DNA of 64,000 nt from Selaginella moellendorffii (taxonomy: Eukaryota > Plantae > Lycopodiophyta), in contig NW_003314365.1 of NCBI RefSeq assembly GCF_000143415.4, forward strand, positions 385,181 through 449,180, read 5' to 3'. The notes beneath the pieces were generated by a model that ran no database searches, was not told the origin of the DNA, and worked only from the letters and a program-made list of their open reading frames with translations. This document shows positions 1-31,141 of this stretch, in pieces. Every line of letters begins with the position of its first letter. Position 1 is the first letter of the stretch. The position numbers and the translations under genes were made by a program.

Positions 1-303
1 GGGTTTTTTTAAAAAACCGGGGGGGCTAAAAGAGGGAAAGGGGGTTTCCCCCCCGGTACCGGGAAAAGGAATTTGGGTTTTGGCCCCACCCGGACTAATA
101 ACAAAAACCGGCCCTTAAGCGGGGGCTGAATTTTCCCTCCGGGGGGTGGGCAATGCCCCACCTTCCCCTTTTTCTTTTTTTAATTTTGGGAACCCCAAAA
201 GCCCCCCCCCCCCCTTTTTTGCCCCCCCCCCCCCCCCCCCCCCCCCTTTTGAGGAACACACACTTTGGGCTTTCACCCCAAGCCTCCCTTAGTATCAGAA
301 GTT
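1..303 (-). mobile_element. Fragment of LTR family C; target of the DNA transposon insertion
   Basis: 250-303 is nearly identical to 36190-36243 (gaggaacaca..tttgggctttcaccccaagcctcccttagtatcag.agtt). 1-250 is a homopolymer-inflated, low-quality version of ~35990-36190. Confidence 0.8.
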
Positions 304-327
304 AAGCTCTATTTCGTTAAAGTGGGA
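304..327 (+). repeat. Left TIR of copy 1
   Basis: Reverse complement of 13415-13438 (24/24) and of 21454-21477 (23/24). Confidence 0.92.
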
Positions 328-992
328 TTTATTCAGTAAAATGGGACTAGGTACAAATTTTCAAGTATTTGAAAATGACGTGAAATTATATGTTTTTTGT
401 CCAGGGGCTAGACATATCTGGGGCATGGTGACTAGCGCGGTGACTTTGTGTCCAGACTGAGTCCATCTGGTTGTATAATAAATCTCATTGTCAAGGTGAA
501 CAAGCCGAATCTGAAGCTAAAGAAGAGCGATGGCATGCGCGCACACACTATTTGTTTGTTCATTGAGCGTGTGGTGAGCTTTCCAAGATGAACGTCATTC
601 CTATTAGCCAGACATATAACTTAATGGTGAGAACATTTAGATATTATTCAATGTTATCTTTTTCTAACGAATCTAATTGTGAAGGTGTAGCAAGAGGCAT
701 TGCTAGTCTGGAGAAGTCATTTAACTCATTTGACCCTTAGTGTATTTTCATGAAACTAAATAACATTCATATTATTAAGGAATTTCTCTAGTACCTTTTT
801 TTTATGACATAGAGGCTTGCATTTCTTTCAAAGGTGATTTAGTAAAAGGCTTGAGGGCACATGCCATTCTATTTCTCAGACCAGTATTAAGATATACTAG
901 TGCAAAGGGCCACATGCCATCATGCCTCCTCTGATTCAGATTCGGATTGTTCACCTTGAAATAAAATACATTAGAAACTTAGTAAAGGAATA

Positions 993-3900
993 TTAAATCT
1001 CACCTTGAACCCGGGTTATGAATGCTCTTGCTGCATCTCTTGCATGGTCTGGCAAGGTGATGGTGGCACTCTGCTTCCGCATCCAACCATGCACAACATT
1101 ATCCACCGATATGCTCATGCTGGGATCCCTTGGATTCAGCACCCATCTCTTTTCTAGGCAATCCTTCGTATATCCGGAACTTGGCTTGAACCACTCCACA
1201 GTTACATTGAAGGAGTTAGTTTCCGCGTCCTCCTCTGCATCAGTGATGCAGCGCCCCACCCATATCATTTGTTTTTTATTACTGGGTCTGACAAGCACGA
1301 CCATTCCTTTGCAGACTTGTACTGGATTGAATGCTGAATCCGGCTTCTTGTTCCTCGGCCCACAATAGTGATCCTCAACATCGTTATCTGTCACTGCATT
1401 TCCAGAGGACATTGTTCCGCTACTATCTGGTGCTCTGGGTTCTGGCCAAAAGGACTCTTCCAATTCTTCATATACAACCGGCCCATTTTGGATAGCAGAT
1501 ATAATCTTCTCCCAGTATTCGAGCAAAGGCTTGCACCTCTTAAAATAGGATTCTCCACCAAACACCAACCCCCTTTTCCAGAAGGCAATATGCTGTCTAA
1601 TCCCGGCCACTATACTTTCCTGGTCTTTGAGTCCATCCGGGTGCATCGGCCGTGGGGAACCCTGAGGAATCATAGGTTCCCCAGTTATGGGATCTCTCTT
1701 GAAGAGTTCAATGCCGTCCACTGGCAGGCACACTGTGTCCCATTCTCTCATCTTGTACCTCATCACTGGAGCACCGTCACGCATGCTGAAATGAAACTGA
1801 AGAGGCTTGGAGTGGCCAATCAGCGTTTCGGATCCGTCCCTGATATAGCCTATTACAAACCCCTTAAAGTCTGGAACCTCTGTCACAAGTGCAGCTTCAA
1901 CAGTGCCTTTGATGCAATTTTGGAATTCATCGTAGAGTTGTGGGAGGGTGAGGACATTGGATCGCCGGAGGGACTCTGCCAGGTGACTGAACATGGCATC
2001 AACGTCTTCATGAGTGTGCCCAACCATGAGAAAGCCAAGTGTAACCGTTTCAAATATGCCTTTGGCAACAAGCATCGCCAAGTACGCGAAGACGTACATG
2101 TTTTTGTTCTCACTGCCAGCATTGTCTGTTTGGAGCAGAAGATGGGGTGGAAGGCCACATCGGCCGCAAGAACTTCCTTGAGATTCTGCTTCGTTTGGAT
2201 GAGGCTGTGCATTCACCGGGCGACCAGCCTCGTCGGAATGGCATGAGGCCTCACGTGATAACCCTACAATCTGACGGCCAACATATTCACTGGGATGGCA
2301 TGGGGCCCCACGCGATACTGCAAGCCTTTGCTCCTCCTCCAGCTGAACCCTGTATGGGGTTCGATCGACAAGGGCCTTATGCAAGGGTTGGCCGTTCAGC
2401 TCAGTCTGCGCACTTTGCAGAGACCTTAAGTGTTTTGCTAGGGACGCAATCATCATGTTTGCACCCCCGCCACCCCATAGAGGTACAAAGAAGTTCCCAT
2501 AGTTCTGGGCACCATGCCCATGAGCGATTATGCCAAACAGAGACACAGGCAGTTGCATGGATGAAGAGATTGCCTTGGGGGCAGGATTGAGTCGAGGTAA
2601 GCACGTCTTTTTCTGGTCCATTTTGTCGTGGATGATGCAGAGGTAAGAGTCAGGTCTCTCCATGGAGAGAATCCTGTTATGATAATATGCAGTCCTGCAG
2701 CTTCTCTGCTCGATGTTGTGGTCGAGCCGCCTTCTAACCAACGTCTCTCGCTCTTGAGCGCTGCAAGAATTCTTCGACAAAGCCATTTTGATAGCAGTGC
2801 ACTCGTCACACTTTGAAAAGCTGGAGTACTTTCCTATACTCACATCCCTGAACCTGTTGCTCCACAATCTACTAAATCTAGATTAGCTCAGCTTCCTGTA
2901 GCCATTACTCTGGAGTTCCCGATTCACATCTTCCAATATGGCCCCCTTGGTATACATGGAAGGGAGAACTCGTTGGGTGTCTCGTGTTCCATCTTCCAAG
3001 AGGCGGGTTTTATGTGGTTGCTGCTCGCTACATGTCTCGACAAACCTCTTGAAGATTGCCTCTCCATATACAACATGACCCCTGGTTTTGTGCGTACTGT
3101 CGTTCCCATGGACTGCCTGTTGAACCCTTTGTTCCTCGAACTCAGTTTTGATTCTGTAGAATGTGCTTCGAGGGACTCCATAAATGATTCTCCATGCCTT
3201 CATGCAGACCAAACCCCTCTGGAAGACCATGCCCCCCACCTGATGTTCTGAAGCATCAACAGATGACCGTAATGCCTCATACACAAAATTGCGAGCTGCC
3301 TTCCAGGACAATGTCTTGTATCTTGCTCTCTCCTCTTCAATAGCATCCCAATCAGCATGTTGACAGCACCTCCTCTTGCAACAAGCAACTGTCGAGACCA
3401 TTCGAACCTCCATCGCCATTTTCTGCCTTTTCGGTTCGTTGCTCAGATCCCTTTGGCTGCGCTGTAGGAAGGTGTACTTTCTTTTCCCATGAAGAGATGT
3501 TCTGTCATCAGTTGTAGTGGTGTTTGATTGTGAATCCTTCACATTCTCAAACACTAAATGCCTCAATTTCCACCTCACAATGCTTCCAATAGTCAGACTG
3601 TTTTCTTCTGTGTCAACAACCTCTAAAATTGCAACTCCAATATCATCCCAGCCCAATTCTTGATTAGCAACCGCATCTCTTGGATCGACAACTGTGGTCA
3701 GCTACCACCTCCCCCTCGTGGTTGTTTAGAAACACCTTTGCCTGAATCCATGTAGCACGGTTCTTAAGATCCATGGAGGGAACATGCATCGCACTTGTGC
3801 TGTCCCCAACATCTGCTTTCTTCTGCAGATTTTTCAAGGCAACAACAACATTTACCCCGACGACCATCTCTCCTCATTCAATAGCGACCACATTCCCATC

Positions 3901-4050
3901 GAAGACAGTCTCTACTGATACAGCAGCATTGCCTTCCCCAAGCCTTTGACAGTGTATAACAAAGTTCCGATCAATAGACACAAGGGTCCCTTTTGCAACT
4001 CTCTTCCCACCATTCAAAATGTAAACCTTTTCCCCAACCCTGAAGGCCAT
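993..4050 (-). pseudogene. Gene A copy 1: Sola-like DDD transposase (~1020 aa when reconstructed), disrupted
   Basis: Motifs FSKCDEC, HDKMDQ, QTDNAGSENKN and FLMVGHTHEDVDAMFS fit the D..DN.xxNKN..GH....D pattern of Sola-type transposases. Lesions relative to copy 2: TGA at 3874-3876, 8-bp deletion near 3698, TAA at 2883-2885. The C-terminal 624 codons are open. Confidence 0.8.
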
Positions 4051-4405
4051 TCTGAAAGTGCAGAAAAGAAGTTAAGACCATACAAAAAATGATTGGAGAA
4101 TGGCCTAAATCATAACATACCAAATAGCATGAGGCCACATGCCATTATTCAAACATGCTATTGACACCCACGTGAAATTTCGCATTCACAAAATTGGCAT
4201 GAGCCCTCATGCCATCTTGATATACACACAGCTGCAGGCAAGTAAAAACATACATGACAATACGCTAGCCATGAAATTGCAAGGGCCCAAGATGGCATGT
4301 GGCCTCATGCCATTTCTAAATGTGGTCCTAAACCATTCCATGGTGAACATACCAGGAAGCACAAGTGCCGAATATCAAGAGGAAGCGGTAGCCACACCAA
4401 AGACA

Positions 4406-4535
4406 GTGCCGCTCGCAACACCGCAACTACTCGTAGCGCCGCTCGCAACACCGCAACTGCTCGTAGCGCCGCTCGCACAAACTGCCACTCGCATAAACTG
4501 CCGCTCGCAATGGCGCTCGCAATGCCGCAACCGCT
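4406..4535. repeat. GC/CpG-rich ~30-bp tandem repeat upstream of gene A
   Basis: gccgctcgcaacaccgcaactrctcgtagc x2 plus degenerate units; mirrored in copy 2 at ~17130-17260. Confidence 0.8.
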
Positions 4536-4850
4536 TGTAGACGCATAAACCACAGCTCACAACGCCGCTTACACAAGCAGCGCTCACTACGCTCAGCGGA
4601 ACCAAGAACACGGCGCACAAAAATGATAGACCTAGGAATGAGTTCGAGAATTAAAAAATAACACACGCTTGAACGTCACATCAAATCCTCTGACAAACCA
4701 GATCTTATGATTCCTTTGACAAATTTCAAACTGAGTAGCTTCTAGACTTTGCTGTCGGAGGTTGAACTTTGTCACATCATGTCCTTGCCTCGATCCAGCT
4801 GTGCCATGTCAGTGATTTGAACTTTGCCATGCCATGTCAGCGATCCGCGC

Positions 4851-6706
4851 CAAGATTATTTGCCGTGTAAAGGAATAATTATGTTGTGTGTGTACGTCCA
4901 TTTATGGCAATATAAGGCCACATGCCATTCAAAGAATAATGCTAGTCGAGCATCTTTTGGTGCATTTTTGGGTTCAAAATTGCATGAGCCCACACGATAT
5001 AAAGTTTACTTGTACCAAAAATAGAAACAGCTTTATTTACTTGGGAATTTAAGTGGTTGAGGCATTTTTAAACTTACAAACACATGCCCTACTTACATTC
5101 CTTTGGTTGCTTAAAATTCAAAAATATTATAAACCTTTCTTTTTGCATTTTCAATGTTTTCAATTATGGTTTTTGATTTTCGCAGGACCAGCCTAGTAAT
5201 CTATTTACATCCCGTCATGTTTATAGCTAGCTTTCGTTTGTCCCCTTCGCTAGCCTGAGATACATCTGCTCGGCATCTGCCTCTTACAGCATTTGCCCAG
5301 AAAGGGCATCTTTCTTCACGCAGCATTTGCCACATGTTTAGGGTTAGGGTTTAGGGTTTAGGGTTTAGCAATTCAGTAGCTTGATAAACATGCAAATACA
5401 GAACTTGATGCAAAATCCTTTGATATGTCACAATGCCCCTAGGACCATAAACACATTTCAATAGAGAGGGTCCTTTCATTTCATAACTCCTTACGTAGAT
5501 CTTGGTGAAACCAGAGTTAGTGAAGTTGGTTTCTTGTGATCCCGCATCTGATTGTGATGTCCCTTTGCAGTGTCGATGGAAAGGTCAATGCACACCAAAC
5601 TGTAGAATCTTGGAGCAAAATAACGGTCGGATCTATGGCAAATGCCCCTGAAACATTGTAAGGCTCGTGTGGTCTCATGTGGTGTCCGATCGAGATGCTT
5701 CTTTGCAGGGTCATCAAGAAGGACATTGTATACCATTCTGTAAAATCTGGTTGCGATCTAACGGTTAGATCTCCAGGAAACTCAAAACAATCTCGCGCGT
5801 GTTAGAATATTCTAGGAATATACTCCTATGTGCTCCAAGATTATTTGCCGTGTAAAGGAATAATTATGCTGTGTCATTTATGGCAATATAAGGCCACACG
5901 CCATTCAAAGAATAATGCTAGTCGAGCATTTTTTGGTGCATTTTTGGGTTCAAAATTGCATGAGCCCACACGCTATAAAGTTTACCTGTACCAAAAATAG
6001 AAACAGCTTTATTTACTTGGGAATTTAAGTGGTTGAGGCATTTTTAAACTTACAAACACATGCCCTACTTACATTCCTTTGGTTGCTTACATTCCTTTGG
6101 TTGCTAGCTTTCGTTTGTCCCCTTCACTAGCCTGAGATACATCTGCTCGGCATCTGCCTCTTACAGCATTTGCCCAGAAAGGGCATCTTTCTTCACGCAG
6201 CATTTGCCACATGTTTAGGGTTTAGGGTTTAGGGTTTAACAATTCAGTAGCTTGATAAACATGCAAATACAGAACTTGATGCAAAATCCTTGGATATGTC
6301 ACAATGCCCCTAGGACCATAAACACATTTCAATAGAGAGGGTCCTTTCATTTCATAACTCCTTACGTAGATCTTGGTGAAACCAGAGTTAGTGAAGTTGG
6401 TTTCTTGTGATCCCGCATCTGATTGTGATGTCCCTTTGCAGTGTCGATGGAAAGGTCAATGCACACCAAACTGTGGAATCTTGGAGCAAAATAACGGTCG
6501 GATCTATGGCAAATGCCCCTGAAACATTGTAAGGCTCGTGTGGTCTCATGTGGTGTCCGATCGAGATGCTTCTTTGCAGGGTCATCAAGAAGGACATTGT
6601 ATACCATTCTGTAAAATCTAGTTGCGATCTAACGGTTGGATCTCCAGGAAACTCAAAACAATCTCGCGCGTGTCAGAATATTCTAGGAATATACTCCTAT
6701 GTGCTC
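4851..6706. repeat. Tandem duplication in the intergenic region of copy 1 (~985 bp + ~870 bp)
   Basis: Both units run from caagattatttgccg to tactcctatgtgctc (4851-5835 and 5836-6706). The second unit has an internal deletion. Copy 2 has a single unit. Confidence 0.9.
5337..5368 (+). repeat. Interstitial plant telomeric repeat / telo-box tract
   Basis: TTTAGGG TTAGGG TTTAGGG TTTAGGG TTTAG; also at 6214-6237 and, inverted, at 16305-16330. Confidence 0.9.
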
Positions 6707-7373
6707 CTGAAAATGGCATGCGGCCCCACGCCATTGAAGAGATAACGCCAGATGACGCCGAGCATTTTTTGGTGCATTTTTTGGGATCAAATTTGCATGA
6801 GCCCACATGCTTGAACGTCATCCTCTGACAATTTATTTAGCTGAACATCTGGCATTTTTGGAAATACAAGATGCTTTGGAATATCCAATCATGCACGGTA
6901 TAAATATAGCGAGGGTATTAAATGATATCCTAATCATGATCTTTCTTTTGGATTTCACGTGCATGCAGTCCGAGGAATGATGACGTTGCGGATTTCTTTT
7001 GGATTTCACGCATGCACGCGCCGATCCAGAAATTAATGGTGGCGCCCAAGTCCGAGAAATGATGACGTGGCGGGATTACCAACCGTCGTGACATTTCGCG
7101 CGTGTGAGGTTAGGTTTTGCATTTTGGTTCGTACTCGCGCTCGCATCGCGCTCGTGTGCATCGGCGTCCACTTCAAGACACACCCAGTTTGTAACTTCGC
7201 CGCCAACTCCGCCGCCCACTCCGCCACCCACACGCAGCCCACTTGGCGTCCCGGGAGATTTCAGCGCCACTCTCCAACTGTAAGTGGCAGAGTAGCCTTG
7301 CTGCTACGATCCGCTGCACACACAGTGCACATTCGCCAGCGAGTCCGGTTGTCACGCCTCCATTCGGCTTCAA

Positions 7374-10300
7374 ATGGTAAGTCTTTTAGGCCAAGTAGAA
7401 AATGGCATGAGGCCACATGCCATTCAGTAGCAACATTGGCATGCACCGATTGGGCTCTCGAGTGCAGTCCGGTTACAGATGGCGTGTAGCCTCACGCCAT
7501 CTTAGGATGCAGCCTCAAGACATCTGATGCAGTGGTGAATGGCGTGTGGCCTCACGTTATTTCCAGCTACTAGCTTTTCATCTGTCAGCTCTAATTGTTG
7601 TGCATTTCTGAACAGGCGAGGAATTGCGTTCTTCTTCCAGCCACTGTCAATGTGGATGCAGAGAAGGGGGAGGAGCTCACCAGTTGGACTTTCGGGATGG
7701 AAGGCGAGGATCTGAGGCTGTACAACACAGATGGTGGGAGAAAAGAATGCATGGGGATCCTCATCCAAGTGACAGACACTCCATGCAGTTCCATGCAAGA
7801 ATATGGACTGGCACTTGTGGTAGAGACAGCGTCTGCCTTCAAGATCCACCTTGCACATCCTAGCGGCTTCCCGGAGGGGGGCAGCGGCTATGAGGAATTC
7901 CTAGAGGGAGCTAGGGAGAGGTTGTCCAGGAGGCCCACAATTTCAAAGACGCTGCGGGTCTATGAAGATCACATGGAATCCACGGACCTCACCTACGGTG
8001 ATGTTCAAAAACTATATTCCAACATTGAGCCGTTGAGAGTGACTCCAGTTCGCGAAGCAAAGGGGAAGGGGGTCGATCTGGAAACTACCTCGAAGCAGAA
8101 AAGGGTGGTCAAGCTCAAGCCGACGTCCGACTCTCCTGCTCCAAAAAAGAAGCTACTCAGTGATGCCATTGCCTCGGGTTCGAACACTACACACACCAAA
8201 AAGAAGAGCCGCAAAGAGCAGAAAGAGCAAGAAGAGGCAGCAAAAATCGTCGCAGATAATAGTACTTGTTACTATTCCAACAAAGTATATACAATCGACG
8301 TGAGCTGTATCGACATCCAAAGCAAATACAACCACAGGCTAGTATCTGATGAGTGGGTGGAGAAATTGAAGCAGAAGATGCTGGCAAGTCCAGTAACACC
8401 CGACATCGCAGACGTGATCCTCTACTACCAAAAAATGAAGGGCGAGATGAGGTTTCCAGACTTGATCAATAGGAAGGTGTTGGACGATCAGAACATCCGG
8501 TTCTATGCCGTCTCCGGGCAGCATTCTAGCTTGGCGATGCAAGAGATAGTTGTGGATATTATGGTGGGCGAGGAGGTGAAGAAAGTCTTCAAGACAAGAG
8601 TTGTCCGCCTGATAAAAGGCAACTCGCCCCTCCGATCTATCATATACATCTCCCACGCGCAGAATGTCAAGCAAGAAACGTGCTACAAATCGGGTCTGCA
8701 CGAGACATTGGCACGAACACGGAAGCTCTGGGTTCAACTGAAGAAGCCACAAAAACCAGGACAAGGACGTGCACTAGCAACTAGCGCCTGGCAGGTAAGC
8801 CTCGTTGTATGTGGCATAGCATGTGGCCTCACGCCATTTCCATTGCAGGAATTCTCGAGTCTTCTCTCGAAAACACTGGGGGTCAATGACACACTCAGCA
8901 TCCATAACATTCTACTCGCGACAAAAGTTGTTTTTGACAAATGGGTAGATGTGCTGAGGAGGTACCATGACGGGGAGTTGCCAAACTCAATGGGTGTGGA
9001 GGACGGCCGGAAGCCCAATGATTTGAAGCTCAACGCCTTGCATTTCTCGCGGTCTCTAGACGACGACGACCTTCTGACAGTGGCTAATGCTCTTCTACGT
9101 GGTGAGGTTGTCTTCAACAAGACCAAAATGACTCCCGGCCATATTGTGACATACGAGGACTTGTGCACGACTCTGAGAGCTCGTGCGCTATTGAAGGATT
9201 GGATCTTCGAGCAAGTGGCCGTGGAGAGGGTGAGCATCGACACCACGCAAGAGATGATGGAAGCGCTGGAGTTGTCAAATGAAGACATCGACGAGTACGT
9301 GAAGGGGGCCCCCAAGTTCATCGATCTGCTGCGGGATGCCACGAAAAGTAAAGCTGAGAAGTTGGATCAGTATCCAAATTTCATTAAGATTGATGTCGAC
9401 CGCCGGCTTCAGAAACAGCTCGACCCCGCAGCAGAGGCCTATCGAGAACCTTACCGGGTATACTTGAATTCGGATGAGGATCAAAGGTGGAGGAGCATCG
9501 TTTCCCGCGGAGATGAGCAGGTCAAGAACATCTTTTGTGTGATGGACTTCACAAACGAGGAGATCACTCATGCAGACGAAGTCAGCTCCATCATTGACTT
9601 AATGGTGGGACTTGCGGAGGTGGAATCTTCAGTCCACTATATGATCTACGACTCCGAATCCTATCACAAGTTCTGGAAGGCCTTGAACGAGGTGAAGGCT
9701 CGGTTGAAAGGCAAGGAGATGCGGGAGATCCATGGGATAATGGCTAAGAAGAAGATACCGACGAATATCCGCATCTTCACACTCGCCCTTGTTATTGGTC
9801 CTGCAGTAGAGTGGGACTGGAGTGACTTCCCAGCTTCGTTCGACAAGGCCAATCGAATTGATCTGAGGGAGGTCAATTTACCCGTGCCTGAGGAATTGAA
9901 GACGGCTATGGAGCTTTCGAATCCAAAGAAAGCTCCAGGTGCAGCATGGGAAATGCTCAGCTGGGTCTTCAACGCAATAGCGGGTGGGTCACCTGCTTCC
10001 GACTCCAAGGGCAAATGCGTTGTCGAGTACAACTGCGGCGGACTATTCTTTCGAGCCGCACTACTCAAGGGTGTCCCGTGTGTTGCGGTGACAAACTCCA
10101 TTGAAGAGGTGACTTCAATGGAGCATATAATTACAGTTGCCAAAGAAAAACAGTATCTTCTCTGCGAACCTGGTGAGTACGCACTTTAAGTTTAAATGTT
10201 ATCTCACAAGCTCTGTATGCAGGAGCGTGGCCACCCCCAGATGCTGAAACGGCGTTAACAGCTACTGTTGAAGATACCCATGTTGGGCCGAGCTCACAAC

Positions 10301-12996
10301 CTGCACAAGCTAAGGTCACGTGAGGCCTCACGCCATTTTGATTATAGATCGTTGTGAATATTCAGACACGAGGACTGAAAAGCGCACTGGTGGCGCATCG
10401 AAGAAGGACAAACAGAAAAGCAATAGGAAAAAAGGAGGTACAAATTATATTTGCAATGGCGTGTGGTCTCATGCCATTCCTTGCAGGAGAAACTTCTTCA
10501 AAGGCAAAACAGGCAAGCACCAGCCAAGCTCAAACTGACAGTGGTCATAAAAAGCGAAAGCACGTTGGACAGTCGTCGAGATCAGAGGCGTTTGATTCGA
10601 AAAGGAAGAAGGGCAACGAAAAGATGATAGGTAATGCCTCGCGGTTATGGCGTGTGTGCTCATGCCATTCATTGCAGATCAAGGGCTGAGTGAAACCAGG
10701 CAGTCACCACCTCATGACTCAGATTCCTATGGCGGACTCCCCTTCCCCAATCTCAATGGAGAGGTACAATGGATGAGGGAAGCTTTTCAAGGCAAGGCCA
10801 CGTTTTTCTCATCTCGTCGTCTTCGAAGGGTGCAAGAACGTGCAGAAACCATGTTAAGACAGTCGGGTGAGGATACGGTCCTAGGTCACGCACTAAAACA
10901 GGCTATGGATGTCTTGTATTTTGAGATGGAGACTCGGCCAGATGATTTTCCCAAGATGGTCCTGGAAGAACAAGCCATCCAGCCTGAGCAGCCTATGGAA
11001 GAAATGCAGGAGGGGGATGAGGAGCCAGAGAAAGATAATGAGCAAGAAGAGCAGAAGGACGAAGAGGAGGACAAAGAAGAGGAGGACGAAGAAGAGGAGG
11101 ACGAAGAGGACTTGGATGGTCCTCACAATGGTGACGATCACAATAACGACGACGACGATGATGACGACGATGGCCAGCCTGAGGTGGCCAAAGAGCGGCG
11201 GAGGAAGGTCATACAAGACAAACCATCAGGTAAATAATAATACATCCATTCCTAACCTTTTACCATTTCTAACATTGTCCATGTAGGTCGCAGAGCAAAT
11301 GGTAAGTAGAGATTATTCAGTTGAATTTACAAACTCTAGCCTTTAGTGTCGAGGAAGGATAGTGCCAAGCAAGGGTCGAAACGTATGTCCAATCCTTCAG
11401 AATCAGCAGTGCGCCCAAGTGATATCGGTCCTAGTTCCTCAATAGCAGTTGATGGTAAATACAGTATAGTCGATTCAATGTGCTAATGAGTTTGTTTTTA
11501 GTAGCACGGGAGGATACCATCTCAATCGAAGGGAGATATTTGGACATGCATATGGATCCGCCAGTGGACTCTACTTGGCTGCAAGAGTCATCAGAGCTGG
11601 TGGAGGCTACTATCCATATCAACGCCAAGCAAGCTGACCACGCTCCACTTGATGCTGCCCATACCACTGAGTCAATCTTGTCCACGTATCCAACTGACGG
11701 TGACCAGGCGCCATTGGACCCACATGAGGCCGCCCCAGCCGCCGAGCCGGTCGTATCCTCATTTCTAACGGATTCAACGTGTGCCCAATCGTCTGACTAC
11801 GCGCCGTTGGAACCTCCCTACACCGCCCCTGTTGCCTGTTCGGTCATGTCCACTTTGCCAACGGAGGCACCAGCTGAAATGGCGTGTGATCACACGCCAT
11901 CGGAACCACCCCATGCCACTGTTGAGCCAGTTGTACCAGAGTCTACAGCTGAAATGGCATGTGCCCACACGCCATCGGATGCGATTGACCCCACATTGCA
12001 GAGGAGAGTATTTCCGCCCTTCACGTTTCCTCGACCAAAACCCTCTCAACGACCATCGGGAGCAACATTTGCTAATATTGTAGATGGTAAAATTGACTTG
12101 TACCATTTTTTATGCTGACGCATTTCATTTCAGAGTCACGGCGAAGGTACTGTATCGTTTTTGATCTGAACGGTGTCCTTTTCTCCCATGAGCGTGGCTC
12201 GTCCTCGAATGTCATTGCACCCTCCAAAGCCTGCGGTCGCAAGTTGGTCAAAAGAGACAGATTCACATTAATCACACGGGAGAAACTGCGGGATCTAATA
12301 ATGACCATGCGACACTTAAAACAGAGGGCCGGGTTCAATTTGCAATTGGGAGTTTTGACATCCATGATGCGCCACAATGCATTAACATTGCTACAGATGA
12401 TGCACGATCAGACGCGAGTAATATTACCATTTGACTTTCTCCTAACGCAGGAGGATTGCTTGACTATGGTCCATGTGAGGGGTAGCAAGCCCATCTTCGT
12501 CAAGCCAGAGGCTGTAGTGATGAACCGGACTGCTAGCTCAAGTGAAATCCTCATCATCGATGACTCGCCGATTAAAACTGCAGCGAACACGCACACATAT
12601 GCAGTGCACCCCATCTCTTGCAGTATGGAAACTAGGGAGAAGAAACCGTATGTTCTGGGGGACCTTGCAAAATGGCTTGGAGCGATGGTGATAGAGAACC
12701 GGCCAGTCCAGGAGGTGGCTGCAGAAATCAACCAAATGGCAGATGGAACGGTATATCAGAAGCCATTTGATCGGACAGACACTAGTCATCATTTATGGCA
12801 TGTATATTGTCTAGCCAAGCACTATCCGCATCTCCATAATCTGCTCAACCGGATGGGTTCTTCGACCACTGAACATGAGCGTGGACGTATTAGAGAAGAG
12901 ATGGCATTACTATTGGGTTTAAATCCTGATAGTGTGGAGAGTGATGAAATTCCAAGATTATTGTATAGGCGTTGGAGGCAAAAAATAACAGTCTGA
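7374..12996 (+). CDS. Gene B copy 1: 11-exon cargo gene (~1640 aa) with ParB/DGQHR-like, degenerate MTase-like, acidic/Pro-rich and FCP1/NIF HAD phosphatase regions
   Basis: Hand-built model: exons 7374-7376, 7616-8794, 8849-10172, 10223-~10309, 10366-10437, 10487-10630, 10678-11229, 11287-11301, 11347-11454, 11505-12086, 12134-12996. GT-AG introns join the ORFs 7595-10189, 10647-11237, 11480-12118 and 12112-12996 in phase. The intron-4 donor is non-canonical (caag|ctaagg), so that junction is uncertain. Confidence 0.72.
7402..7423. promoter_or_regulatory. Representative copy of the element-wide 22-bp palindrome ATGGCRTG-N6-CAYGCCAT (putative protein-binding site)
   Basis: ATGGCATGAGGCCACATGCCAT. 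Related copies at ~846, 2238, 2295, 4124, 4194, 4292, 6713, 7479, 7539, 8816, 10315, 10456, 10647, 11879, 11954 and 13031, plus partial copies. Presence is certain; function is inferred. Confidence 0.7.
8285..8720 (+). other. ParB/Srx (DGQHR-type)-like domain within gene B
   Basis: IDVSCIDI..NHRLVSDEWVEKLKQKM..IADVI..FYAVSGQHSSLAMQEI resembles the R..V..L..M and Y.I.DGQHR..A layout of ParB N-terminal/DndB domains. The conserved R is replaced by S. Assigned by eye only. Confidence 0.55.
12134..12996 (+). other. HAD-superfamily FCP1/NIF-type phosphatase domain (last exon of gene B)
   Basis: Motif I IVFDLNGVL, motif II GVLTS, LTQEDC, KPIFVKP, motif IV ILIIDDSPIK..N...AVHP, matching the DLNG subfamily of NIF/CTD-like phosphatases. 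Confidence 0.82.
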
Positions 12997-13414
12997 GATG
13001 GCATGTATTTATTTAAAAATGTAACTTATTATGGCATGGGGTTCCATGCCATTGTATTAATATTAAAAGACAATTCTTTGAGAGGATTTGCATTATACTA
13101 GAAGTGTTACAGCATGTTATTGGAAGTCTACGAAGTTGTTTTATTAATAATGGGAAAGTAAAGATTGAATGGGGACTTGGGCTCCACCTAGACTCGGAGC
13201 AACTGAGCCAATATTAAAAGGATGGAAAGAAATTGGACGACGATGACAAGGAGAAGAGAGAGGTGAAGCAGTGGCAGGGGGAGGAGAAGTGATTGAGTAG
13301 ACATTTCCTTGTTTAAAATAAAATGGCATGTGCCTCAATGCAGTTGAATTTTGTTATATTTATATACTATATAAAGGTTTGGAAACCTTATTTTACAAGT
13401 GGGATAATGACAAT

Positions 13415-13438
13415 TCCCACTTTAACGAAATAGAGCTT
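13415..13438 (-). repeat. Right TIR of copy 1
   Basis: tcccactttaacgaaatagagctt followed by the TSD AGTT. Confidence 0.92.
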
Positions 13439-13440
13439 AG

Positions 13441-15035
13441 TTAGTGGTACCTCCTCAGCACATCTACCCATTTGTCAAAAACAACTTTTGTCGTGAGTAG
13501 AATGCTATGGATGCTGAGTGTGTCATTGACCCCTAGTGTTTTCGAGAGAAGACTCGAGAATTCCTGCAATGGAAATGGCGTGAGGCCACATGCTATGCCA
13601 CATGCAACGAGGCTTACCTGCCAAGCGCTAGTTGCTAGTGCACGTCCTTGTCCTGGTTTTTGTGGCTTCTTCAGTTGAACCCAGAGCTTCCGTGTTCGTG
13701 CCAATGTCTCGTGCAGACCCGATTTGTAGCACGTTTCTTGCTTGACATTCTGCGCATGGGAGATGTATATGATAGATCGGAGGGGCGAGTTGCCTTTTAT
13801 CAGGCGGACAACTCTTGTCTTGAAGACTTTCTTCACCTCCTCGCCCACCATAATATCCACAACTATCTCTTGCATCGCCAAGCTAGAATGCTGCCCGGAG
13901 ACGGCATAGAACCGGATGTTCTGATCGTCCAACACCTTCCTATTGATCAAGTCTGGAAACCTCGTCTCGCCCTTCATTGTTCGGTAGTAGGGGATCACGT
14001 CTGCGATGTCGAGTGTTACTAGACTTGCCAGCATCTTCTGCTTCAGTTTCTCCACCCACTCATCAGATACTAGCCTGTGGTTGTATTTGCTTTGGATGTC
14101 GATACGGCTCACGTCGATTGTATATACTTTGTTGGAATAGTAACAAGTACTATTATCTGCGACGATTTTTGCTGCCTCTTCTTGCTCTTTCTGCTCTTTG
14201 CGGCTCTTCTTTTTGGTGGGTGTAGTGTTCGAACCCGAGGCAATGGCATCACCGAGTAGCTTCTTTTTTGGAGGAGAGTCAGACGTCGGCTTGAGCTTGA
14301 CCATGCTTTTCTGCTTCAGGGTAGTTTCCAGATCGACCCCCTTCCCCTTCGCTTCGTGAACTAGAGGCACTCTTAACGGCTCAATGTTGGAATATAGTTT
14401 TTGAACATCGCCGTAGGTGTGGTCTATGGATTCCATGTGATCTTCATAGACCTGCAGCGTCTTTAAAATTGTGGGCCTCCTGGACAACCTCTCCCTAGCT
14501 CCCTCTAGGAATTCCTCATAGCCGCTGCCCCCCTCCAGGAAGCCGGTAGGATGTGCAAGGTGGATCTTGAAGACAGACGCTGTCTCTACCACAAGTGCCA
14601 GTCCATATTCTTGCATGGAACTGCATGGAGTGTCTGTCACTTGGATGAGGATCCCCATGCATTCTTTTCTCCCACCATCTGTGTTGTACAGCCTCAGATC
14701 CTCGCCTTCCATCCCGAAAGCCCAACTGGTGAGCTTCTCCCCCTTCTCTGCATCCACATTGACAGTGGCTGGAAGAAGAACGCAATTCCTCGCTTGTTCA
14801 GAAATGCACAACAATTAGAGCTGACAGATGAAAAGCTAGCAGCTGGAAATAACGTGAGGCCACACGCCATTCACCACTGCATCAGATGTCTTGAGGCTGC
14901 ATCCTAAGATGGCGTGAGGCTACACGTCATCTGTAACCGGACTGCACTCGAGAGCCCAATCGGTGCATGCCAATGTTGCTACTAAATGGCATGTGGCCTC
15001 ATGCCATTTTCTACTTGGCCTAAAAGACTTACCAT
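13441..15035 (-). pseudogene. Gene B copy 2, 3'-truncated (N-terminal and ParB-like part only)
   Basis: ORF 13441-14814 is nearly identical to the first 457 codons of ORF 7595-10189 and ends at a TAA created by the junction. The ATG/gtaagt first exon is conserved at ~15033-15035. Confidence 0.8.
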
Positions 15036-18000
15036 TTGAAGCCGAATGAAGGCATGACAACCGGACTCGCTGGTGAATGTGCACTGTGTGTGCAGCGGAT
15101 TGTAGCAGCAAGGCTACTCTGCCACTTACAGTTGGAGAGTGGCGCTGAAATCTCCCGGGACGCCAAGTGGGCTGCGTGTGGGTGGCAGAGTGGGCAGCGG
15201 AGTTGGCGGCGAAGTTACAAACTGGGTGTGTCTTGAAGTGGACGCCGATGCACACGAGCGCGATGCGAGTGCTAGTGTGATGCAAGCGCGAGTGGATGCC
15301 GCTGCACACGAGAAACCTGTAGAGAAGGTAGATGAGCGCGAATGTGAGTGTGATCGCGAGTGGGAGCGCGATGCGAGCGCAAGTGTGCGAGCGCGAGTAC
15401 GAAGCAAAATGCAAAACTTAACCTCACACGCGCGAAATGTCACGACAGTTGGTAATCCTGCCATGTCATCATTCCTCGGACTTGGGCGCCACCATTAATT
15501 TCTGGATCGCCGTGCGTATGCATGCACGTGAACTCCAAAAGAAATCCGCAACGTCATCATTCCTCAGACTGCATGCACGCGAAATCCAAAAGAAAGATCA
15601 TGATTGGGATATCATTTAATACCCTTGCTATATTTATACCATGCATGATTGGATATTCCAAAGCATCTTGTATTTCCAAAAATGCCAGATGTTCAGCTAA
15701 ATAAATTGTCAGAGGATTTGATGTGACGTTCAAGCGTGTGGGCTCATGCAATTTTGATCCCAAAAAATGCACTAAAAAATGCTCGGCGTCATCTGGCGTT
15801 ATCTCTTGAATGGCGTGGGGCCGCATGCCATTTTCAGGGGCACATAGGAGTATATTCCTAGAATATTCTGACATGCACGAGATTGTTTTGAGTTTTCTGG
15901 AGATCCAACCGTTAGATCGCAACTAGATTTTATAGAATGGTATACAATGTCCTTCTTGATGACCCTGCAAAGAGGCATCTCGATCGGACACCACATTAGA
16001 CCACACGAGCCTTACAATGTTTCAGGGGCATTTGCCATAGATCCGACCGTTATTTTGCTCCAAGATTCTACAGTTTGGTGTGCATTGACCTTTCTATCGA
16101 CACTGCAAAGAGACATCACAATCAGATGTGGGATCACAAGAAACCAACTTCACTAACTCTGGTTTCACCAAGATCTACGTAAGGAGTTATGAAATGAAAG
16201 GACCCTCTCTATTGAAATGTGTTTATGGTCCTAGGGGCATTGTGACATATCAAAGGATTTTGCATCAAGTTCTATATTTGCATGTTTATCAAGCTACTGA
16301 ATTGCTAAACCCTAAACCCTAAACCCTAAACATGTGGCAAATGCTGCGTGAAGAAAGATGCCCTTTCTGGGCAAATGCTGTAAGAGGCAGATGCCAAGCA
16401 GATGTATCTCAGGCTAGCGAAGGGGACAAACGAAAGCTAGCTATAAACATGACGGGATGCAAATAGATTACTAGGCTGGTCCTGCGAAAATCAAAAACCA
16501 TAATTGAAAACATTGAAAATGCAAAAACAAAGGTTTATAATATTTTTGAATTTTAAGCAACCAAAGGAATGTAAGTAGGGCATGTGTTTGTAAGTTTAAA
16601 AATGCCTCAACCACTTAAATTCCCAAGTAAATAAAGCTGTTTCTATTTTTGGTACAGGTAAACTTTATAGCGTGTGGGCTCATGCAATTTTGAACCCAAA
16701 AATGCACCAAAAAATGCTCGACTAACATTATTCTTTGAATGGCGTGTGGCCTTATATTGCCATAAATGGACGTACACACACAGCATAATTATTCCTTTAC
16801 ACGGCGAATAATTTTGGCGCGGATCGCTGACACGGCATGGCAAAGTTCGAATCACTGACATGGCACAGCTGGATCGAGGCAAGGACATGATGTGACAAAG
16901 TTCAACCTCCGACAGCAAAGTCTAGAAGCTACTCAGTTTGAAATTTGTCAGAGGAATCATAAGATCTGGTTTGTTAGAGGATTTGATGTGACGTTCAAGC
17001 GTGTGTTATTTTTGAATTCTCGAACTCATTCCTAGGTCTATCATTTTTGTGCGCCGTGTTCTTGGTTCCGCTGAGCGCAGTGAGCGCTGCTTGTGTAAGC
17101 GGTGTTGTGAGCTATGGTTTATGCGTCTACAAGCGGTTGCGGCATTGCGAGCGCCATTGCGAGCGGCAGTTTATGCGAGTGGCAGTTTGTGCGAGCGGCG
17201 GTACGAGCAGTTGCGGTGTTGCGAGTGGCGCTACGAGTAGTTGTGGTGTTGCGAGCGGCACTGTCTTTGGTGTGGCTAACGCTTCCTCTTGATATTCGGC
17301 ACTTGTGCTTCCTGGTATGTTCACCATGGAATGGCTTAGGACCACATTTAGAAATGGCATGAGGCCACATGCCATCTTGGGCCCTTGCAATTTCATGGCT
17401 AGCGTATTGTCATGTATGTTTTTACTTGCCTGCAGCTGTGTGTATATCAAGATGGCATGAGGCCTCATGCCAATTTTGTGAATGCGAAATTTCACGTGGG
17501 TGTCAATAGCATGTTTGAATAATGGCATATGGCCTCATGCTATTTGGTATGTTATGATTTAGGCCATTCTCCAATCATTTTTTGTATGGTCTTAACTTCT
17601 TTTCTGCACTTTCAGAATGGCCTTCAGGGTTGGGGAAAAGGTTTACATTTTGAATGGTGGGAAGAGAGTTGCAAAAGGGACCCTTGTGTCTATGGATCGG
17701 AACTTTGTTATACATTGTCAAAGGCTTGGGGAAGGCAATGCTGCTGTATCAGTAGAGACTGTCTTCGATGGGAATGTGGTCGCTATTGAACGAGGAGAGA
17801 TGGTCGTCGAAGTAAATGTTGTTGTTGCCTTGAAAAATCTACAGAAGAAAGTAGATGTTGGGGACAGCGCAAGTGCGACGCATGTTCCCTCCGTGGATCT
17901 TAAGAACCGTGCTACATGGATTCAGGCAAAGGTGTTTCTAAACAACCCCGAGGGGGAGGTGGTAGCTGAGGGCTTAGCCACAGTTGTCGATCCAAGAGAT

Positions 18001-21000
18001 GCGGTTGCTAATCAAGAATTGGGCTGGGATGATATTGGAGTTGCGATTTTAGAGGTTGTTGACACAGAAGAAAACAGTCTACTATTGGAAGCATTGTGCG
18101 GTGGAAATTGAGGCATTTAGTGTTTGAGAATGTGAAGGATTCACAATCAAACACCACTACAACTGATGACAGAACATCTCTTCATGGGAAAAGAAAGTAC
18201 ACCTTCCTAAAGCGCAGCCAAAGGGATCTGAGCAACGAACCGAAAAGGTAGAAAATGGCGATGGAGGTTCGAATGGTCTCGACAGTTGCTTGTTGCAAGA
18301 GGAGGTGCTGTCAACATGCTGATTGGGATGCTATTAAAGAGGAGAGAGCAAGATACAAGACATTGTCCTGGAAGGCAGCTCGCAATTTTGTGTATGAGGC
18401 ATTACGGTCATTTGTTGATGCTTCAGAACATCAGGTGGGGGGCATGGTCTTCCATAGGGGTTTGGTCTGCATGAAGGCATGGAGAATCATTTATGGAGTC
18501 CCTCGAACCACATTTTACAGAATCAAAACTGAGTTCGAGGAACAAAGGGTTCAACAGGCAGTCCATGGGAACGACGGTACGCACAAAACCAGGGGTCATG
18601 TTGTATATGGAGAGGCAATCTTCAAGAGGTTTGTCGAGACATGTAGCGAGCAGCAACCACATAAAACCCGCCTCTTGGAAGATGGAACACGAGACACCCA
18701 ACGAGTTCTCCCTTCCATGTATACCAAGGGGGCCATATTGGAAGATGTGAATCGGGAACTCCAGAGTAATGGCTACAGGAAGCTGAGCCAATCTAGATTT
18801 AGTAGATTGTGGAGCAACAGGTTCAGGGATGTGAGTATAGGAAAGTACTCCAGCTTTTCAAAGTGTGACGAGTGCACTGCTATCAAAATGGCTTTGTTGA
18901 AGAATTCTTGTAGCGCTCAAGAGCGAGAGACGTTGGTTAGAAGGCGGCTCGACCACAACATCGAGTAGAGAAGCTGCAGGACTGCATATTATCATAACAG
19001 GATTCCCTCCATGGAGAGACCTGACTCTTACCTCTGCATCATCCACAACAAAATGGACCAGAAAAAGACGTGCTTACCTCGACTCAATCCTGCCCCCAAG
19101 GCAATCTCTTCATCCATGCAGCTGCCTGTGTCTCTGTTTGGCATAATCGCTCATGGGCATGGTGCCCAGAACTATGGGAACTTCTTTGTACCTCTATGGG
19201 GTGGCGGGGGTGCAAACATGATGATTGCGTCCCTAGCAAAACACTTAAGGTCTCTGCAAAGTGCGCAGACTGAGCTAAACGGCCAACCCTTGCATAAGGC
19301 CCTTGTCGATCGAACCCCATACAGGGTTCAGCTGGAGGAGGAGCAAAGGCTTGCAGTATCGCGTGGGGCCCCATGCCATCCCAGTGAATATGTTGGCTGT
19401 CAGATTGTAGGGTTATCACGTGAGGCCTCATGCCATTCCGACGAGGCTGGTCGCCCGGTGAATGCACAGCCTCATCCAAACGAAGTAGAATCTCAAGGAA
19501 GTTCTTGTGGCCGATGTGGCCTTCCACCCCATCTTCTGCTCCATAACAGACAATGCTGGCAGTGAGAACAAAAACATGTACATCTTCGCGTACTTAGCGA
19601 TGCTTGTTGCCAAAGGCATATTTGAAACGGTTACACTTGGCTTTCTCATGGTTGGGCATACTCATGAAGATGTCGATGCCATGTTCAGTCACCTGGCAGA
19701 GTCCCTCCGGCGATCCAATGTCCTCACCCTCCCACAACTCTACGATGAATTCCAAAATTGCATCAAAGGCACTATTGAAGCTGCACTTGTGACAGAGGTT
19801 CCAGACTTTAAGGGGTTTGTAAGAGGCTACATCAGGGACGGATCCAAAACGCTGATTGGCCACTCCAAGCCTCTTCAGTTTCATTTCAGCATGCGTGACG
19901 GTGCTCCAGTGATGAGGTACAAGATGAAAGAATGGGACACAGTGTGGCTGCCAGTGGACGGCATTGAACTCTTCAAGAGAGATCCCATAACTGGGGAACC
20001 TATGATTCCTCAGGGTTCCCCACGGCCGATGCACCTGGATGGACTCAAAGACTAGGAAAGTATAGTGGCCGGGATTAGACAGCATATTGCCTTCTGGAAG
20101 AGGGGGTTGGTGTTTGGTGGAGAATCCTATTTTAAGAGGTGCAAGCCTTTGCTCGAATACTGGGAGAAGATTATATCTGCTATCCAAAATGGGCCGGTTG
20201 TATATGAAGAATTGGAAGAGTCCTTTTGGCCAGAACCCAGAGCACCAGATAGTAGCGGAACAATGTCCTCTGGAAATGCAGTGACAGATAACGATGTTGA
20301 GGATCACTATTGTGGGCCGAGGAACAAGAAGCCGGATTCAGCATTCAATGCAGTACAGGTCTGCAAAGGAATGGTCGTGCTTGTCAGACCCAGTAATAAA
20401 AAACAAATGATATGGGTGGGGCGCTGCATCACTGATGCAGAGGAGGACGCGGAAACTAACTCCTTCAATGTAACTATGGAGTGGTTCAAGCCAAGTTCTG
20501 GATATACGAAGGATTGCCTAGAAAAGAGATGGGTGCTGAATCCAAGGGATCCCAACATGAGCATATCAGTGGATAATGTTGTGCATGGTTGGATGTGGAA
20601 GCAGAGTACCACCATCACCTTGCCAGACCATGCAAGAGATGCAGCAAGAGCATTCATAACCCGGGTTCAAGGTGAGATTCATTAATATTCCTTTACTAAG
20701 TTTCTAATGTATTTTATTTCAAGGTGAACAATCCGAATCTGAATCAGAGGAGGCGTGATGGCATGGCATGATGGTGTGAGGCGTGACACCAAAAAGGAGG
20801 TGTCCACTAGCGCTTAGGCTTATAATGGCGTGTGCCCTCATGCCATTTACTTGATCACTAAATACCTTTTTCCCTTTGCACTAGTATATCTTAATACCGG
20901 TCTGAGAAATAGAATGGCATGTGCCCTCAGGCCTTTTACTAAATCACCTTTGAAAGAAATGCAAGCCTCTATGTCGTAAAAAAAAGGTACTAGAGAAATT

Positions 21001-21477
21001 CCTTAATAATATGAATGTTATTTAGTTTCATGAAAATACACTAAGGGTCAAATGAGTTAAATGACTTCTCCAGACTAGCAATGCCTCTTGCTACACCTTC
21101 ACAATTAGATTCGTTAGAAAAAGATAACATTGAATAATATCTAAATGTTCTCACCATTAAGTTATATGTCTGGCTAATAGGAATGATGTTCATCTTGGAA
21201 AGCTCACCATACGCTCAATGAACAAACAAATAATGTGTGCGTGCATGCCATCGCTCTTCTTTAGCTTCAGATTCGGCTTGTTCACCTTGACAATGAGATT
21301 TATTATACAACCAGATGGACTCAATCTGGACACAAAGTCACCGTGCTAGTCACCATGCCCCAGATATGTCTAGCCCCTGGACAAAAAACATATAATTTCA
21401 CGTCATTTTCAAATACTTGAAAATTTGTACCTAGTCCCATTTTACTGAATAAATCCCACTTTAACAAAATAGAGCTT
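13445..21477. mobile_element. Copy 2 of the same transposon, inverted and truncated inside gene B
   Basis: Reverse complement of ~304-8967. Retains one TIR (21454-21477). The other end breaks at ..aggtacca within gene B exon 3. Confidence 0.92.
17617..20685 (+). pseudogene. Gene A copy 2: Sola-like transposase, disrupted
   Basis: Same protein as copy 1. Lesions: 1-bp deletion ~18080, TAG 18249, TAG 18966, +1 insertion ~19543, TAG 20053. The ATG follows an intron acceptor (ttttctgcactttcag). Confidence 0.85.
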
Positions 21478-23030
21478 AGTAATTGTAAGCCACAAATGTT
21501 TCCTTTCCAATTTGCCAGCTTACCTCGTCTATTTGGCCAACTCTGCCTTGGCTTGTGCTAAGTTCCCTCGCCAAGGTCCTCGCCTATGGTACCAGCTCCT
21601 ACTTGGTCCTACTTGGTTTCAACTACTCACTGCACGAGCAATGAAGTGTTAGCCATCCATCTACGGATTCCCAAATCTCTCCCAATCCCCCTCCCCGGGT
21701 TAGCCTGGACTTAAGGTTCGGCTACACTCCCCGCAGGCACAAGCAGCCAAGCACACCAAGCCTCCAGATTCCTAACACCCCTTGGTACCACAAGACTTGA
21801 TCATAGGACCCTCTAAATCCCAAGCCTTGGGTGCAACACTTGCTTCGGGACGTCGGGGCGAAACACCGTGGCCTAACGGCCCGGTATGGGTACCTCTAAC
21901 CCCCCACTTCCATCCCGAAGGGAAGGCCCAAGCCCCTAGAAAGGGCGAGGACCAATAAGCCACAAGGTACTCAAGTGGGGCACCACTCCACATGAGCTGG
22001 GAGCACCGCAGTCGGTTTCCCTTTCGGGAGTGGGAGCTGCTTTTGAGCACTTCCCTGGGTGGCCCCTCGGGCACCACTCAAGCCCATGCTCACTCCCACC
22101 CAAGGCCCCTTGGCCCCAGTCTCAACCTCAAGTTGGTTTGGAAGCCCCACTGGAGAGTTCCTTCAAGACTGGTTCCTAGACCTCACTATCCCTACTATAC
22201 TTTTGGAACCCCCTGTAGCCCCCCCCCCCGGGAGACACACGCTTTGGGCTTTCACCCCTTGAGCTGTATTAGTATGTGGACTTAGTCTCAGAATCAATCT
22301 CGGACTCGATCTCAGACCCAACTTGGGACTCGGTCTCGGACTCGATCTCGGACCCGATCTCGGACTCGACTTCGGACTCGACCTCAGACTCGATCTCGGA
22401 CCCGATTTGGATCTCGGACTCCGTCTCGAACTCGGTCTTGAACTTGGTCTCGATCTCGGTCTCCGATTTGGCCTCGGCTCAATCCCGGACTCTATCTCGA
22501 ACTCGGTCTCAGAGTCGGTCTTGGACTCGATCTTCGACTCGGTCCCATCCGATGAACTCTTTGTCATTTTGGTCAAGCTTTCGGGGATCCATTAGCCTAC
22601 GGCATCTCAGGGAGTCGGTTCCTTACAACTCCACCACCCATAGAAGAAGTTCGATGCCCACATCGAACGTCTCTTTTTATCCTACGACTTGTTAACCATG
22701 TCTTCGGGGACATCCCCCCACTTAGCGGTGTGCCTAAGTTAGCTTCCCCGGCCAAGAGCCCATGACAACAAAATATAGGTGTCCCTATACCCCTCACCTC
22801 ACCATGCCCTAGTATAGGGTCGGGACTTGAACCCAGCCTTGCTTTACTAGGGGGTTGGGACTCGAACCCAACCTCCGTAGAATACGTCTACGGATTCGAC
22901 ATCCCTACGGGGAGTCAGGCGTAGTGCCCTACACCTGGTCGACCTAGCTAACCCATGCTAATTAGCTTACCTTCAGCGTGCCTTTGGGTCCCAACACATG
23001 CCTCTTGCTCAACTTTGCAAATTCATATTT

Positions 23031-31128: not shown

Positions 31129-31141
31129 CTACCCTGATCTG

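Follow-up and report, generated by a model that had tools for sequence, protein, structure and literature searches.

A dispersed 22-bp palindrome in a Sola-like transposon of Selaginella moellendorffii and a predicted ParB-fold protein as its candidate reader

The stretch of Selaginella moellendorffii DNA analyzed here (the window, 64,000 nucleotides) carries a 22-bp palindrome, ATGGCRTG-N6-CAYGCCAT, many times over. This raises the question of what reads it and with what effect.

The transposon and its palindrome

The palindromes lie in two copies of a transposon, whose genes A and B are divergently transcribed. The main features are as follows.

300..303, + strand, target site duplication AGTT, repeated at 13439-13442
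304..13438, copy 1, Sola-like cut-and-paste DNA transposon of 13,135 bp with terminal inverted repeats and a 4-bp duplication
304..327, + strand, left terminal inverted repeat of 24 bp; its reverse complement recurs exactly at 13415-13438
13415..13438, - strand, right terminal inverted repeat
993..4050, - strand, gene A, DUF7869 transposase of about 1020 aa (Pfam PF25273, E 1.5e-42)
7374..12996, + strand, gene B including the NIF ORF, predicted 10 exons and 1620 aa
13445..21477, - strand, copy 2, inverted, cut off within gene B, with 95-98% identity to copy 1 by self-comparison

An empty site was recovered for the one insertion examined, where contigs from a public DNA run continue with an uninterrupted LTR-like target. 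Sola elements have a 4-bp target site duplication (PMC10741241), and the duplication and the size fit this superfamily, to which the element is provisionally assigned. Gene A is broken in copy 1: it has an in-frame stop near 2884, and its frame shifts near 3700. Its full-length homologs have 1054-1074 aa at 37-40% identity, with named relatives in Ceratodon and Riccia, and invariant Asp residues were found at ORF positions 85/88, 252 and 292/294. DUF7869 was its sole main Pfam call, and Pfam detected no MULE domain in the element.

The transposon family is young and abundant. Among 29,217 contigs of the DNA run X1 on 6800-13460, 27,464 (94%) were at least 95% identical. The C/T changes between the two copies affected 72 of 598 CG sites, 42 of 654 CHG sites and 51 of 2742 CHH sites, and this bias to CG and CHG over CHH indicates that the host likely methylates the element. 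This CG- and CHG-biased decay, TTTAGGG tracts and homologs in Selaginella, Riccia and Calypogeia all fit a seed-free land plant as host.

Exact matches to the palindrome numbered 13 at a spacer of 6 (nine in copy 1, four in copy 2), while the same arms at spacers 2-5 and 7-12 gave 0 each in the 64-kb window. With up to two mismatches 31 matches were detected, 18 within 304-13438 and 13 within 13445-21477, against a mean of 0.06 and a maximum of 1 in 100 dinucleotide shuffles (0/100 reached 31). All 31 were thus inside the two copies, and none was found in the 42.5 kb of the window past 21500. At this tolerance, other spacers yielded three matches each at 9 and 11 and none elsewhere in the window. 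The motif is therefore confirmed as real and element-specific within the window.

The preliminary description of this DNA had listed 17 full or near-full sites in copy 1. Sixteen were recovered where they had been placed, with at most two mismatches; the remaining one, 10315, has three, all in the left arm. Its partial copies were of mixed nature: 530 is a full site with two mismatches; at about 910, a deletion relative to copy 2 has left a half site; 4904 and 5880 have the spacer-9 form; and 13323 is degenerate. Two weak sites, 4979 and 5955, were absent from that list. The copy-1 set used for all counts below (n=20) comprises the pattern matches and the profile-scan sites 4979 and 10315, and excludes the degenerate 13323.

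A spacer fixed in length and free in sequence had also been proposed. The fixed length held, exact matches being confined to a spacer of 6, but the sequence is not free. Its consensus is nG(G/C)(C/G)Cn, with G at the second position in 34/36 half-sites (1.7 bits) and G or C at the third, and the inner spacer is dyad-symmetric in itself. Given this constraint, the motif is better described as a near-continuous 22-bp dyad. A p53-type site was ruled out by eye, its inner spacer being YYYRRR against WGGCCW here.

Site placement and the nature of the site

The sites of copy 1 and the predicted introns of gene B are located as follows.

530..867, two sites (530, 846), with the half site near 910, downstream of gene A
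2238..2316, two coding sites (2238, 2295) in the indel-rich transposase linker, alignment columns about 715-805
4124..4313, three sites ahead of the gene A start codon, probably within a 5' UTR intron
4979..6734, sites 4979 (weak), 5955 and 6713 in the central non-coding region
7402..7560, three sites (7402, 7479, 7539) in predicted intron 1 of gene B
8816..10668, sites 8816, 10315, 10456 and 10647, one in each of predicted gene B introns 2-5
11879..11975, two sites (11879, 11954) in a low-complexity exon, a local duplication
13031..13344, site 13031 directly past the gene B stop and the degenerate 13323
7377-7615, 8795-8848, 10173-10347, 10438-10486 and 10631-10677, predicted gene B introns 1-5, GT-AG
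11230-11286, 11302-11346, 11455-11501 and 12087-12133, predicted gene B introns 6-9, GT-AG

Sixteen of the 20 sites are non-coding. The other four lie in 7921 bp of coding sequence (60% of the length), a depletion (p 3e-4), whereas the predicted gene B introns hold 7/20 sites in 760 bp (6% of the length), an enrichment (p 9e-5). The coding sites are restricted to the variable transposase linker and the low-complexity exon, and their in-frame readings (MACDHTPS, MACAHTPS, REASCHS) are as first described, as are the clusters of three at 4124-4313 and 7402-7560. A pyrimidine tract and an AG immediately precede the gene A ATG, and other family copies have one more site joined behind 4215. The placements run through the element interior, in agreement with the earlier statement that the sites extend past the subterminal regions. 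The 24-bp terminal repeats do not contain the motif, and the strong sites closest to them lie 226 and about 390 bp inside the element.

The nine GT-AG introns keep gene B open to its stop, as only one of 4870 random GT/AG sets did; the model was hand-guided, intron 3 was revised after a break at residue 942, and several acceptors have in-frame alternatives. The position of predicted intron 2 coincides with a gap or an ORF end in homologs. Homologs share this position, and for intron 2 an introner-like origin, considered for the introns with motifs, was rejected on that ground. In a run guessed to be RNA, one 59-nt contig (depth 4) skips 7544-7615, which confirms the first acceptor and uses a different donor, inside site 7539. 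Of X19 and X20, both runs guessed to be RNA, X19 had contigs unspliced across predicted introns, and X20 had no contig on gene A.

In predicted introns 2-5 the site ends 9-11 nt before the AG and supplies CTCAY, with the A at -16 or -18. It is the sole YTNAY word 10-40 nt from the acceptor, and the four motif-free predicted introns have such a word at -15 to -18. Judged by position and wording, the sites in these four introns likely double as branch points. A branch point within the site would allow an intron of 47-54 nt to accommodate a 22-bp site at no coding cost.

Whether the palindrome acts as DNA or as RNA was addressed by its symmetry. R and Y vary independently between the arms (A-T 5, A-C 8, G-T 2, G-C 4; Fisher p = 1), the outer spacer pair is complementary in 7/20 sites against 7.1 expected, and the largest excess of symmetric-pair complementarity over composition is 12 against 10. 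The sense strand is defined for 17 sites; in six of them the hairpin was more stable on that strand and in eight on the antisense strand, and three were ties. The lack of arm covariation and of a sense-strand hairpin bias suggests double-stranded recognition of two half-sites. On these patterns the palindrome is very probably a double-stranded protein site. The dimeric protein site of the preliminary description is thus supported by the fixed spacing, the dyad continuing into the spacer, the absence of covariation and of hairpin bias, and the coding depletion. That description proposed no particular binding protein and mentioned neither the ParB-fold gene nor the coincidence of sites with splice signals.

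Its further claim, that the sites are under selection, fared unevenly. Among 40 half-sites, arm positions 5-6 are CA in 21, CG in 17, TG in one and CT in one. CG-to-CA is therefore tolerated and CG-to-TG is not, although deamination alone would yield CA and TG equally, and this asymmetric tolerance of CpG decay indirectly favors selection. With CA and CG common and TG found once, one strand appears to read CA(T or C)G, and such a strand may be indifferent to CpG methylation and to its decay product. Against current selection, the motif diverges between the copies like the rest (6/250 motif positions differ, and 194/8233 of the remainder), which is expected of copies that decay once inserted.

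The gene B protein and rival readers

The predicted domains of gene B are as follows.

8279..8680, + strand, ParB/Srx-fold domain in an AlphaFold2 model
9431..10171, + strand, degenerate N6/N4-methyltransferase-like region (a lead only)
12134..12996, + strand, NIF/FCP1-like HAD domain whose first motif, DLNGV, is altered (Pfam PF03031)

The AlphaFold2 model covers the residues from 8237-9430 and was built on a 15-sequence alignment (mean pLDDT 75.7; single-sequence fold, pLDDT 32). Its ParB-fold domain aligned with Caulobacter ParB 7bm8 at Z 10.3 and rmsd 2.3 over 98 residues. The top Foldseek matches were Noc, ParB, sulfiredoxin and KorB, Noc being the best at E 1.2e-3 and none falling under 1e-3; against phage Spo0J-like proteins the Foldseek E was 2e-4. 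A helical domain follows, and alignments reaching across it had rmsd 5-13. The modelled match to the ParB fold is firm only for the N-terminal nucleotide-binding domain, not for the helical domain, which would read the DNA. At the position of the ParB box II arginines, an equivalence set by eye, 11 of 14 aligned rows read GQHS, two GQHT and one GAHS, with an upstream Arg and a downstream Asn retained around it in the gene B family. In Caulobacter ParB the box II arginines R103 and R104 are needed for CTP binding (PMC8367383). The replacement of this arginine patch by GQH makes a canonical CTP clamp doubtful in the gene B family.

The methylase-like region scored 0.79-0.86 in the ESM Atlas (under 0.9), with PF01555 clusters among the matches and a motif order judged by eye. 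It has no recognisable catalytic motif and no significant match in Pfam, PHROGs, NCBIfam or PDB sequences. PF03031 matched the last exon at 22.9 bits, above the cut-off of 21.8 (E 7.5e-5). A HMMER scan for gene B gave 16 hits, from which P0069, P0073 and P0081 were dropped as repeat-driven chance matches. Word-based searches for gene B added nothing further, and profile searches of PDB sequences gave chance matches only. In viral contigs neither the transposase nor the ParB domain had a relative, and a single motif match was taken as chance.

We propose that the palindrome is read by a dimer of the gene B protein, with a probability of roughly 0.55. This reading leans on the predicted ParB-fold N-terminus and on ParB, Noc and KorB as top structural matches. 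Noc and KorB bind palindromes as dimers. ParB likewise does so, its parS site being a palindrome (PMC8367383). The gene B dimer would bind the palindromes and cover the element, reaching from the two promoter regions to the two 3' ends, and the bound protein would mark the whole element, perhaps countering host silencing. The CAYG core would permit binding at an unmethylated, methylated or deaminated CpG alike, and the methylase-like, acidic and NIF-like parts may target chromatin or RNA polymerase II, a role like that of VANC in VANDAL. An anti-silencing effect of the binding is put forward tentatively. In its fullest form the proposal is speculative: a ParB-methylase module of phage or bacterial origin would constitute a second, independently evolved anti-silencing system in a land-plant transposon family, its ParB-fold dimer loading on methylation-tolerant 22-bp parS-like sites (some of them branch points), spreading, and bringing FCP1-like and methylase-like domains to chromatin.

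The main rival reader is the DUF7869 transposase itself, which might bind the sites for synapsis or self-activation, as TnpA and Mutator transposases do on clustered motifs; we consider this rather unlikely. In Arabidopsis, TnpA and transposases bind motifs and activate their elements (10.64898/2026.08.24.746577), and the N-terminus of gene A weakly matches Transposase_23 (E 0.0055 here, 6.6e-4 in P0008). Relatives of the transposase were detected at 36 metagenome loci. Neither this 22-bp motif nor a gene B homolog was seen among the 36, the closest contigs being 2-6 kb long, but several have palindromes of their own near the transposase gene. One 5.6-kb contig, L001, has 11 matches to a 16-bp dyad of its own, of which 10 lie upstream of the transposase, against a control mean of 1.06 and maximum of 3 for a pattern derived from L001 itself. 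Loci L002, L003, L004 and L006 have another inverted pair in common, with variable spacing, and one downstream palindrome is common to five loci. Private palindromes therefore recur in this transposase lineage. With contigs of 2-6 kb a ParB gene is neither shown nor excluded at these loci, so the transposase stays a live rival, and the apparent lack of a ParB gene there counts for less in its favor. TnpA and the AtMu1 transposase bind at termini (10.64898/2026.08.24.746577), whereas here the terminal repeats lack the motif, the strong sites start well inside them, and the densest placement is 3-6 kb away from the closer end, in introns of gene B.

A recruited, dimeric host transcription factor driving both divergent genes is improbable. 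The clusters of three near both 5' ends would suit it, as would the CATG and CACG cores, which may resemble plant factor sites. The consensus of 20 positions is long for such a factor, though, sites also occur downstream of both genes and in coding sequence, and the 42.5 kb of other window sequence holds none.

Very improbable is a regulation of gene B splicing by an RNA hairpin in which splice signals are hidden or presented. The branch-point-like words within the sites of introns 2-5, the start of site 10315 at a candidate GT donor and the contig with a donor inside site 7539 would agree with it. The missing covariation and the even strand preference described above speak against it, as do a would-be loop that is self-complementary and the location of 13/20 sites outside the gene B introns; the palindrome had no match in Rfam.

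Least probable of all is that the sites are footprints without function, left by a small repeat or by duplication in place: two duplicated pairs (4979/5955 and 11879/11954), the extra site joined behind 4215 in other copies and the lack of excess conservation between copies 1 and 2 would fit, but flanks are alike in only 2/190 site pairs and as unlike as random pairs in 188/190, so that most sites are not duplication by-products. In addition, the spacer does not vary in length, and which changes are tolerated depends on the position.

Comparison with known systems

To our knowledge, binding and modification of an element's body by the transposon's own protein have been well tested only for VANC. 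The gene B system resembles Arabidopsis VANC/VANDAL in two respects: a short motif peculiar to the family lies in non-coding regions (introns, intergenic and terminal), and the carrier is a DNA transposon with several genes, a candidate reader among their products (PMC5735166). Here too the motif is enriched in non-coding parts (16/20 sites). The VANC motifs differ in being of 8-9 nt, in tandem repeats and in Mutator-like elements, with no palindrome mentioned in the accessible text (PMC5735166), whereas the present element has no tandem arrays (2/190 flank pairs alike), a DUF7869 transposase and a 4-bp duplication. Binding and demethylation were shown experimentally for VANC (PMC5735166), whereas the gene B protein is a candidate reader.

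Two algal transposons are closer in gene content. In Ectocarpus, Sola1-1_Ec32 has a gene with ParB and N4/N6-methylase parts opposite the transposase, for which self-binding was proposed (PMC12477816); gene B is likewise a predicted ParB-fold gene divergent from a transposase. The main text on Sola1-1_Ec32 names no site (PMC12477816), whereas a discrete one is visible here. The present case also differs in being from a land plant, in a methylase-like region that seems degenerate and in a NIF/HAD domain predicted to be fused. In the red alga Bostrychia, the ParB-like PAG3 of a Plavaka (EnSpm) element lies beside tandem inverted repeats (10.1101/2025.02.11.637652). A ParB-like accessory protein and inverted repeats thus occur in one element, with self-binding again proposed, but the Plavaka repeats are tandem arrays adjoining PAG3, the effector is a 2OG-oxygenase and the transposase belongs to another superfamily (10.1101/2025.02.11.637652). 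The sites here occur one by one across 13 kb, have unrelated flanks and form part of introns.

With bacterial ParB-parS, Noc-NBS and KorB (7bm8, 7ol9, 8qa8), gene B shares the predicted N-terminal fold and a many-copy palindromic site (PMC8367383). The box II arginines are missing, the DNA-reading domain is not clearly matched, and the site is of 22 bp against the 16-bp parS core (PMC8367383); no ParA gene was seen in the element. By an ESM Atlas score of 0.96, the ParB-fold part of gene B also resembled DUF3723 clusters. DUF3723 is a conserved accessory gene of the giant fungal Starships, which differ in moving by a tyrosine recombinase (10.1101/2021.12.13.472469). No literature on a land-plant ParB transposon or on this motif was found, subscription journals and Repbase lying outside the search, and none mentioning 'DUF7869'.

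The explicit consensus and the built-in mutational profile in a young, abundant family make the proposal testable by one binding assay. If true, it would extend parS-like loading to plant chromatin and provide a new programmable pair of site and reader. The putative fusion of a DNA site with a branch point would further illustrate how a compact element fits sites into its own genes. ParB accessory genes in giant algal transposons, with self-binding proposed, are known already (PMC12477816; 10.1101/2025.02.11.637652); what is probably new here is a land-plant case with a discrete, dispersed and testable site.

Motif variants and turnover of sites

Variants of the 22-bp palindrome (ATGGCRTG-N6-CAYGCCAT) in which the spacer measures 9 nt and the left arm is changed were identified in the Sola-like element, and both adjoin weak sites of spacer 6.

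4904, 9-nt-spacer variant of the motif
5880, 9-nt-spacer variant of the motif

Other copies of the family, as seen at loose ends in the sequencing runs X1 and X2, carried an extra site behind the one at 4194. It was joined at window position 4215, and the linker between the two sites was 14 nt long and near-palindromic. Therefore, sites are still being gained or lost within the family.

Palindromes at loci encoding related transposases

The transposase of metagenome locus L001 displayed 40% identity to that of the element. A different palindrome, 16 bp in length, occurred ten times upstream of its gene (L001:527-1724), and the flanks of these copies were unrelated to one another. This palindrome also contains ATGGC, in an arrangement opposite to that of the window motif. 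Five relatives had one 18-bp palindrome in common, of which no copy was detected in the window, and a spaced dyad was located several kb away from a distant transposase relative.

L001:5169, L002:4428, L005:2127, L007:3619 and L009:4028, 18-bp palindrome a short distance downstream of the transposase
L010:4098-5090 and L011:277-790, dyad in repeated copies, its 6-bp arms separated by a 13-nt spacer

Central region of the element and neighboring repeats

Short plant telomere tracts (TTTAGGG) were found in the central non-coding region of the element and are possible telobox-type regulatory sites. In copy 1, they fall inside an approximately 1-kb tandem duplication.

5336-5368 and 6213-6238, tracts in copy 1
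16305, tract in copy 2

Window positions 55177-55280 matched this central region (5545-5648) at 75% and may be what is left of an older relative. The first part of the window (1-260) was rich in homopolymers and looked of low quality. Other repeats were also detected.

21484-34551, LTR retrotransposon (LTRs 93% identical), directly adjoining the end of copy 2
23888-31126, related element nested in this retrotransposon
36712-37706, tandemly repeated unit (about 400 bp) with LTR-like ends
56584-57179 and 59694-60286, 600-bp inverted repeat pair (95% identity) flanking 2.5 kb, possibly a Mutator-like or fold-back element

ParB-fold domain and DUF3723

The ParB-fold domain predicted in gene B (8279-8680) scored 0.96 against DUF3723 clusters, which hints that DUF3723, an accessory protein of Starships, is also ParB-like.
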